A stretch of 64,000 nt of DNA from a virus (Duplodnaviria > Caudoviricetes), in IMG/VR virus record IMGVR_UViG_3300022666_000111, one strand, 5' to 3'. The notes beneath the pieces are model-generated. The model was not told the origin of the DNA and ran no database searches. It saw nothing but the letters and a program-made list of their open reading frames with translations. Of the stretch, positions 99 to 53,712 are shown piece by piece (the stretch's first letter is position 1; each line of letters begins with the position of its first letter). A program made the translations under genes and the position numbers.

Positions 99-596
99 AT
101 GGGAGACATCCACTCCAAAACAGCCAAGGCGCTCTTCGGAGAGGCAACGCCCCCAAGGCGGGGCCAGGCGATGGCCATCAACTTCGCGTGCATCTACGGC
201 AGGAGTCCAACGAGTATGTCAAAAGAAGCAATGGTTCGGCTCATCAAGCACCGTGACTCCTGTCACGATGACTGGGGAGAAGATGGGGCTTGGCGCACCC
301 TTTGTGGGCTACGCACGATGGAGGCCGATAGGTTTCCAGAGGACCTTCATGACGCCTTGAAGGAGTTCCAGGCGATGGATGAAGAGGCCCAATACAGTCT
401 CGTCTACGAGACTCTTGGCATTACGCCCGAGACGACCTTCCAAGTGCTTCCAACGGGGCATACAGAGGAGCAGCTTCGGGCGGCCTTGCGCCTCTTGGGC
501 TTGCAGGTTTACGAGCGACAGGGCAAGCTCATCGTATCCCGAGTCGAGCTTGACGCGGCGGACATCGCCGAGATCGAAGGGCAGGTTATCGAATGA
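99..596 (+). CDS. Hypothetical protein with N-terminal DNA polymerase A motif-B-like fragment
   Basis: DIHSKTAKALFG...RRGQAMAINFACIYG resembles PolA fingers; ATG 9 nt after GGTGTAG. Confidence 0.6.
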   Translation: MGDIHSKTAKALFGEATPPRRGQAMAINFACIYGRSPTSMSKEAMVRLIKHRDSCHDDWGEDGAWRTLCGLRTMEADRFPEDLHDALKEFQAMDEEAQYSLVYETLGITPETTFQVLPTGHTEEQLRAALRLLGLQVYERQGKLIVSRVELDAADIAEIEGQVIE

Positions 597-925
597 CACA
601 GTTCATGATCCCGCAAGAGGCCGAAGTAGAAGCTGATGACGTCGGCTTCATCGCCGAGCTGAACCACACGGGGGACATCAAGTACACCTGGAATCGGAAG
701 AACGAAGCCGAGGTGGCCGCTGCCGAGGAGCACTTCAAGGCCATGAAGGCCAAGGGCTTCCTGGTGTTCAAGGTGAGCCGGGTCGGCCTCAAGGGGAAAG
801 AGGTCGCCGAGTTCTCGGGCAAGCTCGGTGGGCTCATCTTCCAGGCCGGGACGAAGTCAGAGGTCGCCCAGACGTTTGACCCCAAGGCTTCGTACGTTGC
901 GACGCCGCCAGCGGTTGGGGGCTGA
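593..925 (+). CDS. Small beta-grasp/ubiquitin-like candidate with C-terminal GG
   Basis: Apparent beta-beta-alpha-beta-beta-beta pattern, ends FDPKASYVATPPAVGG; ATGA coupling with upstream gene. Confidence 0.55.
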   Translation: MTQFMIPQEAEVEADDVGFIAELNHTGDIKYTWNRKNEAEVAAAEEHFKAMKAKGFLVFKVSRVGLKGKEVAEFSGKLGGLIFQAGTKSEVAQTFDPKASYVATPPAVGG

Positions 926-1283
926 CCATGGCTGTGCGCCTCTCAACCCTCGTGCTTGGCAAAGGGCCGATGTCACCAAGGCAGCTCAAAATGGTGCGCA
1001 AGTGGCTCGACGAGGACTGGGAGGCGCGTGACATTGACCAAGACGCGGTAGCGCTCATCAAGAGGCTGCTCGTCACCATAGGAGAGAAAGATGGGACTGA
1101 AAGACCACCGCGAAGAGCTGATTGACGGGTTCACGAAAGCCGTTGACGAGATGATCCGGGCGGAGGGGGACCACCCCAACACACAGGGGCAGGAGCCCTT
1201 GGGCGTCAAGTCGACGATCAAGGTGATCTACGTTGGCACCAACACAGAGATCTGCTGCAACCCCGAATGGGGCTTCCAGTCGG

Positions 1284-2174
1284 ATGAACCGGCTTCTTCT
1301 TGACATCGTCCAAGACGGGCAGATCCCGATCTACGCTGCGCCTACGCGTGGGATGCGCTACTACACGCACACGGAGGAGCTGGTTTGGGATCCCCGTCGA
1401 GCCACCAACAAGATTCTCATCTCCGTAGGCGTCGACCATCGTCTCGACAGCATTCGAGAATTCTTGGGCACTGAGCTACTTCGTGATGAGGGCACCCTCA
1501 TTTTCGCGGTCAGGTATGTTGAGGCCCTCACGAGGGCTTTTCAAAACACGCCCACGCTCTTTGTCCTGGGTGGCATGGCCTTCGTACCGGGGGCCAACAC
1601 GCTAGGGACGCCTCTCGAGAATGGTGACCCTTGGCCTATTGTTCGGCAGTTCATTCACACCACCTACCGCCTTCAAAAGGGGCTTGAGCCTGACACGGCG
1701 CACCCAATCATTGACGACGCGGTGCAGCGCTACTTGGCGGGGCGCACAGCGCTGGATGTTGGCGTCCAACGGTCGGAGGCAAGGGACAAGGCCCTAGCTA
1801 TTCTAACGGCCAACCTTGACCCCGTGCAGCGGAAGGAGTTCCTTGAGCGCGGTCACTTCCACGTTGTCGGGCAGGACGGGCGCACCTACCGAATCGACAA
1901 GAAGCACACACATGGCGTTCACCGGATCGAGGGCGGCGTCAAGACGTTCGAGTACTGCCTTGTGGCGGACGTACACATACCCACCTTTGACCTTATGCTC
2001 ATGCAGAAGCTCCTTTTGGAGTCAGACACGACGCATTTTCTCGAGAAGGCAAATGCTTGGGATCTTCGTGGGGGCAAGCGTAAGTTCCTCCGAGGAGGGC
2101 ACCTCGCCATTGTTGATCCCAGCGGTGTAGTTGTGAAGCATGGCGAAGAAGAAGCCCCCGGAGCCCCTGGATGA
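1284..2174 (+). CDS. Hypothetical protein with C-terminal putative E2-like Cys domain
   Basis: GHFHVVGQDGRTYRI...YCLV...PTFDLMLMQKLLLESD...FLEKAN; E2 similarity is inferred. Confidence 0.5.
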   Translation: MNRLLLDIVQDGQIPIYAAPTRGMRYYTHTEELVWDPRRATNKILISVGVDHRLDSIREFLGTELLRDEGTLIFAVRYVEALTRAFQNTPTLFVLGGMAFVPGANTLGTPLENGDPWPIVRQFIHTTYRLQKGLEPDTAHPIIDDAVQRYLAGRTALDVGVQRSEARDKALAILTANLDPVQRKEFLERGHFHVVGQDGRTYRIDKKHTHGVHRIEGGVKTFEYCLVADVHIPTFDLMLMQKLLLESDTTHFLEKANAWDLRGGKRKFLRGGHLAIVDPSGVVVKHGEEEAPGAPG

Positions 2175-2648: not shown

Positions 2649-3038
2649 ATGACAACCGAGATGGAAAAGGACTGGGAGACCCTCAAGAAGGATCCCGTGC
2701 CGAACATGCCTACCGAGAGGCTGGCGGAGTTCGTCATGGCCTACTGTGACGGGCAGATCTTCACCCTCCACAATCTACGTGACCCCGCGCTAGCGCACAT
2801 CGTCTTCATGCCGATCGTCTTTGGCGGGATGTCGCGCTTTCAGCCCGAGGATGTGGGCACCGTTTGGGAATACATGAACCAAGCGGGGAAGCTGGGCGTC
2901 AATGGCAACCCGATCTTCACGTCCATGCACGTCATGAGCAAGTCGGATTGGGAGAAGGCCGTCAAGGCGATCGAGCGCGAGAAGGAACGGCGCCGAGAGG
3001 CCACGCGGACGGTCCTTGAAGGACTTGACGCGGGTTGA
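2649..3038 (+). CDS. Phage hypothetical protein
   Basis: Leaderless ATG after class-1 promoter; VFMP...WEY...NGNPIF motif. Confidence 0.7.
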   Translation: MTTEMEKDWETLKKDPVPNMPTERLAEFVMAYCDGQIFTLHNLRDPALAHIVFMPIVFGGMSRFQPEDVGTVWEYMNQAGKLGVNGNPIFTSMHVMSKSDWEKAVKAIEREKERRREATRTVLEGLDAG

Positions 3039-3297: not shown

Positions 3298-3501
3298 CTA
3301 GCGCAGTTCAAGGAGGACGACGTCGGCACCATTTGGGAGTACTACAACAAGGCGGGGGCAAGGAGCATCAACGGCTACCCTTGTTTCTTCTCGCTACACG
3401 TCATGTGCAAAAAAGATTGGGAGAAGGCCATAAAGGCCATCCGGCGTGAGCTTGAGCGACGTCGTGAAGCTGCTGAAGAGGTGCTGGCGGACCTTGGCTG
3501 A
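3298..3501 (+). pseudogene. Start-less 3' remnant paralogous to 2649..3038
   Basis: FKEDDVGTIWEYYNKAG...DWEKAIKAIRRE aligns with FQPEDVGTVWEYMNQAG...DWEKAVKAIERE; stops upstream in frame. Confidence 0.85.
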
Positions 3502-16835: not shown

Positions 16836-17255
16836 ATGTTTAGCCTGGCTTTCATGATCATGTCACTGCTCACGCAGAATGGGGACACGCTGCAAGACAC
16901 GCTCGCCATCATGGATGACCCCATGTCTTGCGGAGTCTCGACGGACGCCGATGGCATTCGACGTGATCGGATGACGCGTTGGGCTCCCGGCGATCCCGTG
17001 TGCATGTTCAACTCGATCGACAACGCCTATCACTTCGCCCATGAGGTCCTTTGGAGAGCCAACGGAGGGGCAATCTACGGCGCCAATGTTGACTGCCGAG
17101 GCAACCTCACGGCTGATAGCGTGCCCTGCCTCGTGGACGTAACCGACAAGAACTACAAGGTCCGCCGAAAGGTCTGGATCGCTTGTGAATCCGCCCGTCA
17201 CTGCGGGCACTACGGCAACACCAAGGGTCAATGCTGCAAGATGCTGGTGTACTGA
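16836..17255 (+). CDS. Putative secreted Cys-rich protein
   Basis: Signal-like N-terminus, many Cys; SD GAGGAG. Confidence 0.55.
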   Translation: MFSLAFMIMSLLTQNGDTLQDTLAIMDDPMSCGVSTDADGIRRDRMTRWAPGDPVCMFNSIDNAYHFAHEVLWRANGGAIYGANVDCRGNLTADSVPCLVDVTDKNYKVRRKVWIACESARHCGHYGNTKGQCCKMLVY

Positions 17256-17265
17256 GGAGACCACT

Positions 17266-18228
17266 ATGAGCTTTCACAAATACCCATCCATTGTTCTCCT
17301 CCGCGATCGGCAAGACCTCTTTGCCGTCAAGGAGGTCGTTTGCACCGAGAAGCTCCACGGGAGCAACTTCCGGATTCACTTCCCCTGCGGCATGACGAGC
17401 CTCGACGAGGTGCAATTCGGCTCCCATGACGTCGAGATGACGCCCGGTGAGCCCTTCCCCCTTGGCGTCGCCGTCAACTGGTTCAAGGCCCGGCCCAACC
17501 TCTTGCAATCCATGTGGGACGTCATCAAGAGCTACGGCTTCTCGGAGGCGACCGTCTACGGTGAAGCCTACGGCCCTGGGATCAAGGCCAAGGGGATCCG
17601 CTATTCGACGGGGACTGAGATGCTCTTCCGCGCCTTCGATATCATGATCGGGGACAACTTCTTGACCTATGACCTCTTCGTCGAAGTCACGGACAAGATG
17701 GGGCTCAACCGCGCCCACCTGGTCTACAAAGGCCCACCAAGCCAAGAGGCATTCGACCAGCTCCTCGAGGTCCCGTCGCTCGAGGCCAAGCACAACGGAA
17801 TCAACGACCCCGCCAACATCGCCGAGGGGATCGTCATTCGGAGCAACCCGCTCTTCCGTGACGTCTTCGGCGATTGGCTCATCGCCAAGCACAAGGCTGC
17901 CAAGTTCTCAGAGGTCGCGAAGCAACGGCCCCCGAAAGGCCCACGATCGGCTACGCCCGCCGATGAGTTCGCCTTGACCTGTGTGATCGAGGGACGCGTC
18001 CGGAACGCCGTAGGGCGCCTCCAGGACCGAGGCGTGGCCCTCACCATGACGATGAAGGACATGCCCGTACTGCTTGACGAGATGATCGCCGACCTCGACA
18101 AGGAATGCCGGAGCGTTTGGGAAGAGATCGCTCCAGACAAGCCCTTCCAAGAGGCCCTCAATAAGGGCTCCATCAGCCGCGTTCTTGGCCCGCTCTTCCG
18201 AAAGATGCTCGAGGACAAGTCGCTATGA
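17266..18228 (+). CDS. RNA ligase, Rnl2 family
   Basis: EKLHGSNF (motif I), YGEAYG, FRAFDI, EGIVIR, KHK. Confidence 0.9.
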   Translation: MSFHKYPSIVLLRDRQDLFAVKEVVCTEKLHGSNFRIHFPCGMTSLDEVQFGSHDVEMTPGEPFPLGVAVNWFKARPNLLQSMWDVIKSYGFSEATVYGEAYGPGIKAKGIRYSTGTEMLFRAFDIMIGDNFLTYDLFVEVTDKMGLNRAHLVYKGPPSQEAFDQLLEVPSLEAKHNGINDPANIAEGIVIRSNPLFRDVFGDWLIAKHKAAKFSEVAKQRPPKGPRSATPADEFALTCVIEGRVRNAVGRLQDRGVALTMTMKDMPVLLDEMIADLDKECRSVWEEIAPDKPFQEALNKGSISRVLGPLFRKMLEDKSL

Positions 18229-31615: not shown

Positions 31616-32308
31616 CTAGAAAAGGTCTTCGTCCATGAGCTTGTCGTAAGCGGTGTGGACGGGGTCGGCGGTCATCCGCGTTGGGGCGACGATCGCGTAG
31701 TTCCAATCGTTGTACAATTCGGGGAGGGCGACCTGGATGAATTCGGGCTCGTTATGAGGGTACGGGCTTCGGGGGAGCCCGAGCGTAACCACGGGGATAC
31801 GGGCCATCCTTCCGGGGGCTTCTTCGATGGTGCTTAGGGATGCCACAATCCTGTAAGACTTGCGCATATCCGGGGGCGCCCAGATTTGACCCTCTTCGAC
31901 GGTGTGGCAGAGCACGCATTCGTAGTAGAGGTGCTGCTCCTGCGGATCGTCGTAGGACGACGCGAGGTTGCGTCGTTGGAGGTTGTAGCCCTCCCCGTAA
32001 TGCACGCCGACGCCGATGCGGGGTTTCATGAGGTGGATGACGCCTTCGGAATCCCGAAGCCAGCATTCCTTCGTGATCGGCTTTCTGGGGTCAAAGCTAA
32101 CGTGCCCCTCATAGACCCAGCCCCGGGCGCCTACGAGAATGAAGCCTCTCCGGAGGTCCGTATTCGAGACACGGACCTCGATGAGGTCACCAATAGGCTC
32201 GGGGCCGAGGATCTGTAGGGTAGCCTGGTCGACGGTGACGAAGTCGATGTCGTGCGACTTGTTTTGGTCGTAGATGTTGAGGATCCGGTGCCGGAGGGTC
32301 TTTCTCAC
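31616..32308 (-). CDS. Hypothetical protein with C-terminal acidic tag
   Basis: Ends TAYDKLMDEDLF. Confidence 0.7.
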   Translation of the reverse strand: MRKTLRHRILNIYDQNKSHDIDFVTVDQATLQILGPEPIGDLIEVRVSNTDLRRGFILVGARGWVYEGHVSFDPRKPITKECWLRDSEGVIHLMKPRIGVGVHYGEGYNLQRRNLASSYDDPQEQHLYYECVLCHTVEEGQIWAPPDMRKSYRIVASLSTIEEAPGRMARIPVVTLGLPRSPYPHNEPEFIQVALPELYNDWNYAIVAPTRMTADPVHTAYDKLMDEDLF

Positions 32309-33651
32309 GGGATCTCCTTGGCGAGGCGGAGGAGGGTTTCACGTTCGTTGAGGGAGGGGTCGTCGGTCACGGATTCGAGGAGTGCATTGAGGACGCGGCC
32401 GACGCGGGGGCCTGGGGCGATCCCGAGGGCCTCCATGACGTCGCGGCCGTTGATGACGAGGACCTTCGTGGAAGTTGGGATGGTCTCCGTCACGCTCATC
32501 CGTGCGACCCGATCGCGGAGGGCGTCGATGAGCGTCTCCTCCAGGGCGACCTTGGCGGGGCCTTTGCCGTCGATGTCTGCGTGGGCCAAGGTGCAGAAGT
32601 CGGGGACGTTGTCGAGCCCAACCTTGCGGACCCAGCGGCGGACGGCGGGGGCGCCGTGGTCAGCTTCGTAGCGGATGTAGTGGTGCCGCACGAAGTGAAC
32701 GATCGCTTCCAAGTCTTCCGTGGCGAATCGCAGCCGGGTCAAGATCTCCCGCGTCATGTCAGCCCCTACGACCTCGTGGTTGTAGAAGGTTGCGTCTCCT
32801 GTCACCGGGTGGGCCTCCTTCACGGCGGGCTTGCCGATGTCATGGAATAGGGCGGCGAAGCGCAGCAAGGGCTTCGTAGCCGGGACACGGTCAAGCGTAA
32901 CCAAGGTGTGCTCCCACACGTCGAAGGCGTGGTACTTGTTCTGGGCGCACCCAAAGCTCGCCTTGAATTCCGGAATGAAGACCTCGAGCATCCCCGTCTC
33001 CGCCATGACGCGGAAGGCGACCGAAGGCTTGACCGAGCCCTTCATGATCTTGAAGAGTTCGTCGTGGACGCGCTCGATCGAGACTTTCGAGAAGACTTCG
33101 AGGTTTGGGCGAATACCCTCGAGGGTCTCGGGTTCGATGCTGAAGCCCAGGGTTGCCGCGAATCGGGCGGCGCGCATGACGCGCAAGCCGTCCTCGTGGA
33201 ACCTGCGGCGGGGGTCGCCTACGGCTCGGATGACTTTGTTTGCGATGTCGGCCATACCTCCGAAGGGGTCGACGGTTCGGTCGTCGATCGGGTCGTAGGC
33301 GATGGCGTTCATGGTGAAGTCGCGCCGGGCCAGGTCGTCTTCGATCCGGTCGAGGAAGCTCACAGCGTCGGGGCGTCGTCCGTCCGTGTAGTCCCCGTCC
33401 CCACGGTACGTCGTCACCTCGAAACCGGTACCGTCCACGATGGCCGTCACGGTTCCATGTTGGATGCCGGTCAGGATGACACGGGGGAAAATGCGGAGCA
33501 TGACTTCTGGGCGGGCGTTGGTAGCGATGTCCCAGTCATGGGCTTCTCGGCCCATGATGAAGTCGCGGATAGCGCCACCGACCAGGAAGGCTTCGTAGCC
33601 CTCACGGCGGAGGGTCTGGCAGATACGGAGTGCTTCGGGAGGGATTTGCAT
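32305..33651 (-). CDS. cca: CCA-adding tRNA nucleotidyltransferase with HD domain
   Basis: VGGAIRD, DWDIAT, DLARRDFTMNA, EDGLRVMRAARF, HDIGKP; leaderless class-1 promoter. Confidence 0.92.
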   Translation of the reverse strand: MQIPPEALRICQTLRREGYEAFLVGGAIRDFIMGREAHDWDIATNARPEVMLRIFPRVILTGIQHGTVTAIVDGTGFEVTTYRGDGDYTDGRRPDAVSFLDRIEDDLARRDFTMNAIAYDPIDDRTVDPFGGMADIANKVIRAVGDPRRRFHEDGLRVMRAARFAATLGFSIEPETLEGIRPNLEVFSKVSIERVHDELFKIMKGSVKPSVAFRVMAETGMLEVFIPEFKASFGCAQNKYHAFDVWEHTLVTLDRVPATKPLLRFAALFHDIGKPAVKEAHPVTGDATFYNHEVVGADMTREILTRLRFATEDLEAIVHFVRHHYIRYEADHGAPAVRRWVRKVGLDNVPDFCTLAHADIDGKGPAKVALEETLIDALRDRVARMSVTETIPTSTKVLVINGRDVMEALGIAPGPRVGRVLNALLESVTDDPSLNERETLLRLAKEIP

Positions 33652-33680
33652 GGCTCTTGTATGCCGAGCCTCACGGGTGA

Positions 33681-34211
33681 TCAACCCCAATAAACGTAGA
33701 GGCCCTCTTGGAGGCTCGGGATGATCTCTGGTACACCGGCAAGGATGCAGAGGCCGACGACGCCGGGCGAGATTTGTCCGAGGGCGTAGGGATAGAGCCC
33801 GTGGGTGACCTTGTGAAAGCGGGGGCGCTGGCTGTGCCGTTCGGTCTCCTCAATCCAATCCAGCGTTGTGTCGTAGCGGAACCACGATTTGTACTCCAAG
33901 GGATCGATGAAGAGGGTGAGCCGTTTGAGCCCGAATTCCGGATCGTGCATGACGCATTGGCTCATGCTGTGGAAGGCAGGCTTGTGCTCGGCGGCAATCG
34001 CGATGTAGAGACTCACGTTGGAAAGCGGTGACTCCCGGGAGTAGCGTGTATCCTTGGGCGCTGGGGTAGCGGCGGCCACGGCGTCCTTGTTCTTCCGGAG
34101 CCACTTGAGATACTTGGGAAAGTCCATGGCGTAGAGCATCTCCGAGGTCTCTTCGGAGATCTTAGCCTTTCGCGTAGCCCAGCCGATTGCCTTATGGACG
34201 CGGATTCCCAT
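33681..34211 (-). CDS. Hypothetical protein
   Basis: 176-aa ORF ending YVYWG. Confidence 0.65.
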   Translation of the reverse strand: MGIRVHKAIGWATRKAKISEETSEMLYAMDFPKYLKWLRKNKDAVAAATPAPKDTRYSRESPLSNVSLYIAIAAEHKPAFHSMSQCVMHDPEFGLKRLTLFIDPLEYKSWFRYDTTLDWIEETERHSQRPRFHKVTHGLYPYALGQISPGVVGLCILAGVPEIIPSLQEGLYVYWG

Positions 34212-49894: not shown

Positions 49895-50360
49895 TGGTTC
49901 ATGTCTCCGAGAGGTTTCTCTTCCGGGGCTGGTATGCCGGTGGGGTAGAGGGATCAACGTATTTGGGGTGGGGAAATGAATTTGACCGTGAAATCAGATG
50001 CTGTCTTGGCGATCATTGATGCAGAGGTATTGGGACCGAGGGCACCCAGAAAACCGTTGATCACGGAGCCCGTCCGGCATGTTGGGCACATGGAGAGCAT
50101 CGACTTCCAAATCGCAAGAATGGCCCAGGCTTTTGACCTTGGAATCAGCGACGAAGTCGCTGTGAGCATCCTGGCTAAGGATGACATCACGGGGGCCGCC
50201 GCCTTCTACATCATCCAGGCTGCGCACCTGCTATCAAACGATCGCGGGTGAATTCCCTGGCGCCAAGGTTCGGAACGGTGTAGGTAATGCCCGTGCCGTA
50301 ACTTTGGCCCACACGGGCATGCTGGCAACACTTGGCGGCTTCGGCCGCATGGAGGATCAA

Positions 50361-51944
50361 ATGGCAAGCAAGATTCTGTTCCCAGGGGCGAAGCCGTCTG
50401 TTCAGGCGGCGGACACGGTCAACGAGGCGGGTGGGGCGGCGTACCAGATGACGCCAAAGATGGCCCTGGCTCAATTGGCGGTGACGGGGTGCCTGTCCAA
50501 TACGTACTACGTGTCGGACAAGATGCAGCTCGAGGCCGTCTTGAACGCAGCCGTCGCGTGCGATCCGGAGTACGTTGCGAAGGTGGCGCTCTACGCACAC
50601 GAGAAGGGCTTCATGAAGGACATGCCTGCGGTTCTTGCGGCCTACCTGGCTGCGATGAATGGGGCGCTCCTCGAGCCCATCTTCCCGCGTGTCATCAACA
50701 ACGGCAAGATGCTCCGCAACTTCGTCCAGGTCATCCGGTCTGGCGCGTTGGGGCGCAAGAGCTTCGGAACGCGTCCGAAGAGGATGATCCAGAGCTGGTT
50801 CGAGAGCCGTAAGGACGGCGTGGTCTTCACGAACTCCACGGGTAACGATCCGTCGATGGCGGACGTTATCAAGCTCATCCGGCCGGTTCCGGGGACGGTG
50901 GAGCGTTCGGCGCTCTATGCCTACCTGCTTGGGAAGGACAAGTTCAAGTTCCAGGGGCAGGAGCTGGTGACGTCGGAGCATGTTCCGGAAGAGGTCAAGA
51001 GCTTCCTGGCATTCAAGGCGGACCCGGCCAAGGTTGCTGTCCCGGAGAAGGGTGTCCCCTTCGAGATGCTCGTCGGTGTTGAGGGCATCACGGAGAAGGG
51101 CTGGAAGCAGCTTGCGGAGAGGGCTACGTGGACGCAGCTCCGTATGAACCTCAACACGTTCCTGCGTCACGGGGTCTTCTCGGACAAGAGGCTCACCAAG
51201 AAGCTGGCCGACAAGCTCGGATCGGCGGAAGAGGTTGCGAAGGCACACTGCTTCCCCTACCAGCTCCTGGCGGCCTACAAGAACGTGGGTACGGAGATGC
51301 CCACGGAGATCACCCTGGCGTTGCAGGACGCCTTGGAGGCTGCTACCAAGAACATCCCGGTGTTCGCGGGTTCGGTCGTGATTTGCCCGGACGTTTCGGG
51401 CTCCATGTCAGCCTACGTCACGGGACGTCAGGGCAGCAAGACGCCTTCGAAGGTCACCTGCATTGACGTTGCAGCCTTGGTTGCAGCGAGCGTCTTGAGG
51501 ACCAACCAGACTGCGAGGGTCATCCCCTTCGAGCAGAGCGTGGTTGGCGTCAAGGTCAATCCTCGCGATTCGGTCATGACGAACGCGCAGAAGCTTTCGT
51601 CCATCGGCGGAGGCGGGACCAACTGCTCGGCGCCCCTGGCCTTGCTCAACAAGGAGAACGCCGCGCCGGATGTGGTCATCTTCATCTCGGACTACGAGTC
51701 ATGGGTTGATCGTGAGTACGGGCACGGTACTGGGATGCTCACGGAGTGGCAGCAGATCGTCAAGCGTAACCCCAAGGCCAAGCTGATCTGCATCGACGTG
51801 ACGCCTTCGTCCACGCACCAGGTCCCAAGTCGTCCTGGGATCCTTCAGGTCGGCGGGTTCTCGGACGAGGTCTTCAACGTCATCGGGGCCTTCGTCTCCG
51901 GCGACGCCTCGAGTTGGGTTGCCTCGATCGAATCCTACAAATAG
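50361..51944 (+). CDS. Ro60/TROVE-vWA RNA-binding protein
   Basis: NEAGG.AY, LRMNLNTF.RHG, FPYQLLAAY, DVSGSM, GGGT.C, ISD.ESW, GGFSD.VF. Confidence 0.92.
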   Translation: MASKILFPGAKPSVQAADTVNEAGGAAYQMTPKMALAQLAVTGCLSNTYYVSDKMQLEAVLNAAVACDPEYVAKVALYAHEKGFMKDMPAVLAAYLAAMNGALLEPIFPRVINNGKMLRNFVQVIRSGALGRKSFGTRPKRMIQSWFESRKDGVVFTNSTGNDPSMADVIKLIRPVPGTVERSALYAYLLGKDKFKFQGQELVTSEHVPEEVKSFLAFKADPAKVAVPEKGVPFEMLVGVEGITEKGWKQLAERATWTQLRMNLNTFLRHGVFSDKRLTKKLADKLGSAEEVAKAHCFPYQLLAAYKNVGTEMPTEITLALQDALEAATKNIPVFAGSVVICPDVSGSMSAYVTGRQGSKTPSKVTCIDVAALVAASVLRTNQTARVIPFEQSVVGVKVNPRDSVMTNAQKLSSIGGGGTNCSAPLALLNKENAAPDVVIFISDYESWVDREYGHGTGMLTEWQQIVKRNPKAKLICIDVTPSSTHQVPSRPGILQVGGFSDEVFNVIGAFVSGDASSWVASIESYK

Positions 51945-52360: not shown

Positions 52361-52618
52361 ATGGCGACGGTCTACAAGATCCGGGACAAGGCAACGGGGC
52401 TTTTCTCAACGGGAGGCTACAACCCAACCTTCGAGAAGAAGGGCAAGGAGTGGAAGGCGTTACAGCACGTCCGTAGCCACCTGACGCAGCTATCGGCTAG
52501 CTGGATCGGCCCCAAGAAAGCCATCCCGCCCTCTTGGGAGATCGTGGAGTACGAGGTCGTCAAGACGGAAGTAGGGGTCCTCCCCGCTCTGCCCTACCGG
52601 AAAGAGAGAACGCGATGA
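52361..52618 (+). CDS. Phage hypothetical protein
   Basis: YKIR...TGLFSTGG..P.F...GK.W. Confidence 0.7.
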   Translation: MATVYKIRDKATGLFSTGGYNPTFEKKGKEWKALQHVRSHLTQLSASWIGPKKAIPPSWEIVEYEVVKTEVGVLPALPYRKERTR

Positions 52619-53712
52619 CATTCGAATGGAACATGCCTCCAGGGGCGCTCCCCTGGGTGAAAGACCGGACCTTCTACCTTACGCGCCACGGATCGCACGC
52701 CTATGGCACGAACCTCCCGACATCCGATATGGACATCCGGGGGATCTGCATCGCGCCCAAGGAGTACTACCTCGGCTACGACCTTCACTTCGATCAGACG
52801 TCGTCGGCGACAACCTCTGACGACGTGGCCCCGGACTTCGTCATCTTCGAGCTTCGCAAGTTCATGAAGCTCGCGGCGGTTTGCAATCCGAACGCCTTGG
52901 AGATCATCTTCACGGATCCTTCGGATCACCTGTTCGTGACGGCGACATCGAAGCGGCTTTTTGAATGCCGCGACATGTTCCTCTCGCGTTTGGCCTTGAG
53001 AACGTTCTCGGGGTATGCCGCGTCGCAGATGCGGCGGATTGAGGGGCACTACCGATGGCTCAAGAATCCTCCAACCAAGAAGCCGGAGCGATCGGACTTT
53101 GAATTGCCGCCCCAACCGGAGATCCCAACGGAGCAATTGGAGGCCGTCAACGCCGGGATCCAGAAGAAGCTCGACCAATGGAACATGAATTTCCTCCAAG
53201 ACCTTGAGCCCGCCTACCGGATCGAGATCAAGGAGGCCATGTTCGAGATGCTCACCGAGATGCAGATCCACATGGACGACTTGTGGAAGGGCGCGGCGAG
53301 GTCCTTCGGTTTCGACGAGAACTTCATCGAGTATCTCAAGCGGGAGCGTCAATTCACGGCGAAGGCCCGGGAGTGGAAGAAGTATCAGAAGTGGCTCAAG
53401 GAGCGAAACCCTGCGCGGGCCGCCTTGGAGGCAAAGTGGGGCTACGATACGAAGCACGCCATGCACCTCATCCGGCTCTTGCGAATGTGCCGGGAGATCC
53501 TAACGGAGGGCGTCTTGCGGGTACGGCGCCCAGACGCGGCCGAGCTTCTTGAGGTGCGTAACGGCGCCTGGAGCTACGAGAGCCTCGTTGCTTGGGCAAA
53601 CCAGCAAAACTACGAGCTTGCCCAGATCGTTCTAACCAGCCCTCTTCCCGCAAGGCCGGACAACCGTGCTCTTGACTCCCTCTGCATTGAGCTTGTCTCT
53701 TCGGCCCTTTAG
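52615..53712 (+). CDS. Pol-beta-family nucleotidyltransferase (YcgL/RlaP-like)
   Basis: GSHAYGTNLPTSDMDIRG, NPNALE, GYDTKHAMHLIRL. Confidence 0.85.
   Translation: MTFEWNMPPGALPWVKDRTFYLTRHGSHAYGTNLPTSDMDIRGICIAPKEYYLGYDLHFDQTSSATTSDDVAPDFVIFELRKFMKLAAVCNPNALEIIFTDPSDHLFVTATSKRLFECRDMFLSRLALRTFSGYAASQMRRIEGHYRWLKNPPTKKPERSDFELPPQPEIPTEQLEAVNAGIQKKLDQWNMNFLQDLEPAYRIEIKEAMFEMLTEMQIHMDDLWKGAARSFGFDENFIEYLKRERQFTAKAREWKKYQKWLKERNPARAALEAKWGYDTKHAMHLIRLLRMCREILTEGVLRVRRPDAAELLEVRNGAWSYESLVAWANQQNYELAQIVLTSPLPARPDNRALDSLCIELVSSAL

Follow-up and report, generated by a model that had tools for sequence, protein, structure and literature searches.

A conserved phage gene pair encoding a predicted ubiquitin-like protein with its putative E2-like Cys-domain partner

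The window analysed here, a 64,000-nt stretch of DNA from the Caudoviricetes record IMGVR_UViG_3300022666_000111, carries two genes (593-925 and 1284-2174) that encode a predicted ubiquitin-like protein (Ubl) ending in Gly-Gly and a protein with a compact domain built around a single Cys. The pair is mostly phage-borne and recurs across dozens of phage lineages. The evidence is evenly balanced on whether the two genes form a phage module for tagging proteins, consisting of a Ubl tag and a minimal E2-like carrier enzyme. A more specific version, in which a Ubl family not described before and a catalytically active RWD/E2-like enzyme of ~100 residues make up a two-gene conjugation system that borrows a host ThiF/MoeB and selects targets via a swappable N-terminal domain, is put forward tentatively. 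The main features, derived from the open reading frames (ORFs), family alignments and fold prediction, are as follows.

593..925, + strand: predicted ubiquitin-like (beta-grasp) protein of 110 aa with a mature C-terminal Gly-Gly (ORF, fold prediction, homologues)
917..922, + strand: codons of the terminal Gly109-Gly110 (sequence, conservation in homologues)
1284..1751, + strand: N-terminal extension of the Cys protein, ~156 aa, found in close relatives only
1752..2063, + strand: compact Cys domain, residues 157-260, RWD/UBC-like (family alignment, predicted fold)
1956..1958, + strand: codon of Cys225, putative catalytic residue (Cys in 86/87 domains)

The product of 593-925 is 110 aa long and ends in AVGG, as stated in the original prediction. 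Within the 40 strain variants listed, those falling in this gene comprise 9 synonymous and 2 non-synonymous changes in its own frame, against ratios of 0:11 and 3:8 in the other two plus-strand frames. The Gly-Gly end is retained in 135 of 155 homologues and, counted by locus, in 108 of 119, with a terminal Gly in 116 of 119; the proposed check on the conservation of this end and of the partner's Cys (86 of 87 domains) favoured the prediction. The model adopts a beta-grasp fold (strands 17-24, 27-34, 57-61 and 100-104; helix 38-54) with the conserved Gly-Gly exposed after the last strand, while residues 65-87 form a lineage-specific insertion of low model confidence. ThiS, MoaD, Urm1, TtuB and SAMP1 occur among the fold matches, and in the beta-grasp matches the Ubl tail was aligned with the C-termini of MoaD and SAMP1, in agreement with the beta-grasp suggestion made from the letters alone. 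Foldseek returned nothing for this model at E <=0.001, Pfam and PHROG gave no match to named Ubl families (ubiquitin, ThiS, Prok-Ub), and the family profile found no relative among PDB sequences, only chance matches. The viral library yielded unnamed phage proteins only and the Atlas unnamed clusters only, the nearest named cluster by Atlas features being ThiS at 0.76, a value within the chance range. A minority of Ubls carry residues or whole domains beyond Gly-Gly; at L007:5001-5693, for example, the Ubl runs through Gly-Gly into a DUF6197 domain, comparable to a ubiquitin fusion precursor, with the usual Cys gene after it.

The 1284-2174 product, encoded two small ORFs downstream on the same strand, is a 296-aa protein whose sole Cys, C225, lies in YCLV, also as predicted; an alternative in-frame TTG start at 1233 could add 17 aa. 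Its N-terminal extension had been put at about 190 aa and measures about 155-160 aa; it is possibly a targeting or localisation part. The following domain comprises two helices, a four-strand meander leading to C225, a loop with P233 and D236, two further helices and A256-N257, and its Cys, Pro and Asp are conserved in 86, 84 and 85 of 87 domains, respectively. Strain variants in this gene are 7 synonymous and 7 non-synonymous, none of which alters a Cys-domain residue. A His two positions after the Cys (C-x-H) is found in 59 of 87 domains, the C225 copy having Val there.

For the E2-like fold proposed for this domain, RWD, UEV, BRE or E2 chains account for seven of its top ten fold matches (some of these chain identities being presumed); motif and sequence models do not favour it. 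In place of the HPN motif upstream of the Cys, the family has G-N (Asn in 70/87), with H-G in the window copy; since the His of HPN is also absent in several bacterial E2 families (PMC1779556), this bars membership of the canonical E2s only. Foldseek returned nothing at E <=0.001, and BilB, Cap2 and BubB are not among the 50 fold matches listed. Searches of 80 Cys domains against Pfam, PHROGs, NCBIfam and PADLOC gave nothing consistent and no family, including UQ_con, Prok-E2 and the PADLOC E2 models (the best PADLOC match had E 0.0045, and a single E2 model matched 1/80 domains, at E 0.028). The full protein matched no Pfam or PHROGs family, and the domain gave only chance matches among PDB sequences. 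The Cys-domain family is possibly a distant relative of DUF7737 (PF24879), the C-terminal domain of bacterial DUF4132 proteins: the motif order is similar and hhalign aligns the Cys (probability 48%, P 1.8e-4), although the alignment spans only 36 columns, the Cys is variable in DUF7737, that domain is part of large multidomain proteins, and its curated cut-off was not reached (1/80 Cys domains at E 0.06). A literature search found no paper on DUF7737.

UEV domains have no catalytic Cys. The RWD domains lack it as well (PMC1779556), and the phage domain differs from RWD/UEV domains such as RWDD3 (in 4Y1L), GCN2, VPS37A and Tsg101 in its near-invariant Cys and in the adjacent gene for a cognate Ubl.

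A large paralogous subfamily, covering most of P0171-P0275, has H-F-H in place of the Cys motif and is further marked by an RPTPCCPxC linker and an N-terminal domain of its own (L129:4001-4867, L130:4001-5056 and L109:3393-4481, for example). In the two loci read, L129 and L130, no Gly-Gly gene adjoins it, and the idea that its N-terminus is a fused degenerate Ubl was unsupported (hhalign probability 0.8%; no hidden Markov model match).

Genomic colocation ties the two genes together. Among 119 loci found through the Gly-Gly gene, 105 have the Cys gene directly downstream on the same strand, its Cys domain starting 133-1081 nt past the stop of the Gly-Gly gene; the other 14 consist of 13 loci that end within 850 nt and a single fusion. 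With near-duplicates removed, the pair occurs in 67 of 68 testable lineages, in line with the original prediction's statement that the two families are neighbours. In a reverse search from the Cys domain, 34 of 45 viral loci had a Gly-Gly gene upstream, a proportion biased upwards by a query built from Gly-Gly-linked domains, the remainder being two loci that were too short and nine orphans. Three orphan genomes carry a Gly-Gly-family gene elsewhere, whereas none was found in a complete 529-kb genome with two orphan Cys genes. Two orphan Cys-domain genes (L172:2782-3306 and L174:2833-3279) have a hydrophobic, probably membrane-spanning N-terminal extension. No third gene family is common to more than 6 of 73 lineages. 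The pair is present in two annotated phage records but rare among the cellular genomes of the single bacterial phylum sampled, where 3 of 401 have the Cys domain. In two large phage contigs (L148:490-3303 and L154:490-3303) the genes form a natural in-frame fusion, with an internal Gly-Gly followed by L-M and then the partner, and at L035:2369-2977 a Ubl is fused to a truncated Cys domain, both Gly-Gly and Cys being lost. Phage Rctr197k has, 1.2 kb upstream of its pair, a region annotated as CRISPR repeats (L002:1309-1563) next to a transposase-like gene. In the window, two small ORFs separate the genes.

928..1125, + strand: 65-aa ORF, a called gene outside the conserved module, no Pfam or PHROGs family
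1091..1303, + strand: 70-aa ORF, a called gene outside the conserved module, no Pfam or PHROGs family

The 65-aa ORF is missing from the closest phage relative (L001), where the Ubl and Cys genes overlap directly.

Structure prediction places the two products in a complex scoring 0.81, compared with 0.00 for the best control. Among solved complexes 58 of 80 attain this mark, and among mismatched pairs 2 of 110. The score supports binding without demonstrating it, and may owe something to a resemblance to E2~Ub complexes already solved. The runs share at least 84% of contacts, with a predicted local distance difference test value of at least 71 for the partner. On the Ubl, the predicted interface comprises A21, L23-D28, L57, F59, V61, V102 and T104-G110, which in our mapping, via strand position and the count from Gly-Gly, would approximate the Leu8 loop, Ile44, His68, Val70 and tail of ubiquitin. 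On the Cys domain, with C225 numbered 70, it comprises the strand/loop 70-78, helix 79-92, loop 54-55 and residues 100-102. The contacts listed include 71-108, 72-108 and 73-105/106 (Cys domain-Ubl) and not Gly110-Cys70 itself; this series suggests an antiparallel run that would bring Gly110 to Cys70. It is this patch of ubiquitin that packs against the crossover helix in closed E2~Ub (PMC8062481), and the predicted layout here is the same. The likeness to canonical E2 (UBC, Pfam UQ_con) and ubiquitin covers the beta-grasp with its Gly-Gly end, the partner's predicted order of helix, beta meander, Cys and helix, and, in the predicted docking, the Leu8/Ile44/His68/Val70-equivalent face on the post-Cys helix with the tail at the Cys.

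The original prediction had seen no E1/ThiF or JAB gene in the window, and in these 64 kb of a 341-kb contig none was found either when seven phage E1/JAB queries were run in tblastn or when 70 larger ORFs were compared with Pfam. Across 18 phage records with the pair, a ThiF-family gene was detected in 5 and a JAB gene in 4, and across the seven near-complete ones in 1 and 1; of 14 control genomes, 12 gave a ThiF-family match. A single Gly-Gly locus has an E1 within 5 kb of the pair; in the window no E1 or JAB/peptidase gene was found in an operon with the pair, and the 73 lineages show no conserved third gene. The closest relative has a stand-alone MoeB/ThiF-like gene (L001:462-1196) 2.8 kb upstream of the pair, which by eye is without the MoeB crossover-loop Cys. 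A 436-kb phage (L123:216-2091 and L166:2368-3339) encodes an operon of JAB, a small protein ending in TPFG, an unknown gene and an E1, with an orphan Cys-domain paralogue ~1 kb downstream on the opposite strand; this E1, being in one operon with the JAB and TPFG proteins, probably serves that system.

In the proposed tagging module, the Ubl as translated already has a free Gly-Gly end and needs no processing. It would dock on the Cys domain via its Ile44-like face and tail, a ThiF/MoeB-type enzyme outside the module (usually the host's, sometimes a phage copy) would adenylate its C-terminus, and it would be loaded on Cys225 as a thioester, as the predicted geometry and the conserved Cys suggest. 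In the weakest step, an amine on a host protein, on a phage protein or on the partner would receive the Ubl, and the variable N-terminal extension would set the destination. If a thioester forms, borrowed ThiF/MoeB-type adenylation may be the simplest route, because a Ubl ending at Gly-Gly offers no post-Gly residue to cut, the means by which E2-only CBASS dispenses with an E1 (10.1101/2022.05.25.493364). What stands of the earlier proposal of a minimal phage tagging system is the conserved, linked pair and its predicted binding, whereas adenylation, thioester formation and transfer are steps that we infer.

The pair lies outside Bil, Bub and CBASS, as the module has no E1, JAB or CD-NTase, and, by sequence, outside the named Ubl and E2 families. 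Bil (BilABCD) and Bub (PMC10557695, PMC11601596) likewise combine a Ubl with a divergent E2 and no E3, but they are host defence operons encoding an E1 and a peptidase, unlike these two mostly phage-borne genes, and their models do not match the phage pair. In E2-only CBASS (10.1101/2022.05.25.493364), a stand-alone E2 similarly makes a thioester with a C-terminal Gly and no E1; there, however, the energy comes from removing a post-Gly residue and the substrate is cGAS, whereas here the partner is a small, 110-aa beta-grasp tag ending in Gly-Gly, with neither a CD-NTase substrate nor a removable residue. The sulfur carriers ThiS, MoaD, SAMP, TtuB and Urm1 (served by ThiF/MoeB/UbaA) share the small beta-grasp and Gly-Gly end, and several are fold matches, but the Ubl has no Pfam ThiS match, its partner is not a sulfur-using enzyme and sulfur-pathway genes are not conserved neighbours. 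A literature search found no description of the Ubl/Cys pair.

An unlikely alternative is that the pair acts as a counter-defence sink, with the Ubl as decoy substrate and the Cys domain as decoy acceptor for host Bil or type II CBASS Cap2. Thioester chemistry, a step common to this and the tagging reading, would then stop at a dead-end adduct, draining the host pathway in place of tagging chosen targets. Such a role would suit a mostly phage-borne pair that has no E1 of its own and sits among small accessory phage genes, given that bacteria deploy Ubl conjugation against phages (10.1101/2023.09.04.556158; PMC10097602). However, many phage lineages conserve the pair although Bil/Cap2 systems occur only sparsely, the PADLOC models show no sequence likeness, and a decoy does not obviously require a tight cognate partner.

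Equally doubtful is a sulfur relay, in which the host would make a thiocarboxylate on a ThiS/MoaD/TtuB-type carrier and the partner Cys would accept or donate sulfur as an acyl-disulfide or persulfide. The carriers among the fold matches, ThiS as nearest named feature cluster (in the chance range) and the MoeB-like nature of the E1 beside the pair in L001 fit this reading, and thiocarboxylation of Gly-Gly proteins is the usual job of host ThiF/MoeB (PMC1779556). Apart from that single MoeB-like gene, sulfur-transfer or cofactor genes are not linked: rhodanese, desulfurase, thiouridylase and cofactor genes are not conserved neighbours, and the partner resembles RWD/UBC domains rather than MoaE, ThiG or TtuA.

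It is improbable that the partner is an E1-independent Cys protease or transpeptidase, whose Cys would attack a post-Gly bond, form a thioester without ATP and conjugate or remove the tag. This would account for the missing E1, has a precedent in E2-only CBASS (10.1101/2022.05.25.493364) and could draw on the C-x-H of many domains and the residues that a minority of Ubls carry beyond Gly-Gly. Yet the route requires a post-Gly residue, and since this Ubl and those of 108/119 loci stop exactly at Gly-Gly, they hold no bond to attack; in addition, Val replaces the His in the C225 copy.

Least probable is a non-covalent heterodimer (an adaptor, regulator or toxin-antitoxin-like pair) with Gly-Gly and Cys kept for packing, for although the modelling covers binding only, the RWD/UEV domains that match the fold most closely are catalytically inactive and the His-for-Cys subfamily had no adjacent Gly-Gly gene in the two loci read, packing alone poorly explains a terminal Gly in 116/119 and a Cys in 86/87 at the same predicted groove.

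Literature searches found two kinds of bacterial Ubl system, namely host defence operons that encode an E1 and E2-only CBASS. If the tagging reading is true, a widespread phage Ubl with a mini-E2 and no E1 would be an architecture new to these systems and might serve counter-defence or host takeover. In the more specific version, phages would have a ubiquitination pathway of their own, and with it an extant bridge from sulfur-carrier systems to E2-dependent conjugation. A working Cys in a domain of RWD size would inform the origins of E2 enzymes.

The source contig is 341 kb long and, with the tail-fibre, thymidine kinase, dCTP deaminase, endonuclease VII, RNA ligase and CCA-adding-like genes of the window, most likely derives from a jumbo phage. 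The sequence is present in wastewater runs, and both genes and the two ORFs between them are all called genes in the public assembly of the same DNA. Metatranscriptome contigs cover the region only as scattered low-depth pieces and give no evidence of expression; the deep runs covering it are probably DNA. The window starts with a run of small plus-strand genes, in which a 165-aa ORF (99-596) overlaps the start of the Gly-Gly gene and opens with a short fragment, 44 aa long, of a DNA polymerase A motif (E 1e-5). Elsewhere in the window lies an RNA repair gene set consisting of a Ro60-type vWA protein (50181-51944), an RlaP nucleotidyltransferase (52534-53712), a CCA-adding-like enzyme (32305-33690) and an RNA ligase (17185-18228). 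Downstream of the pair, a 36-nt near-tandem duplication (2499-2570) lies within ORF 2140-2592, and an exact tandem repeat of a 27-nt unit (2589-2642) stands immediately 5' of the gene at 2649. A diverged copy of the 3' half of that 129-aa gene (2649-3038), probably a duplicated remnant, is found at ~3300-3501 and is without a called gene.
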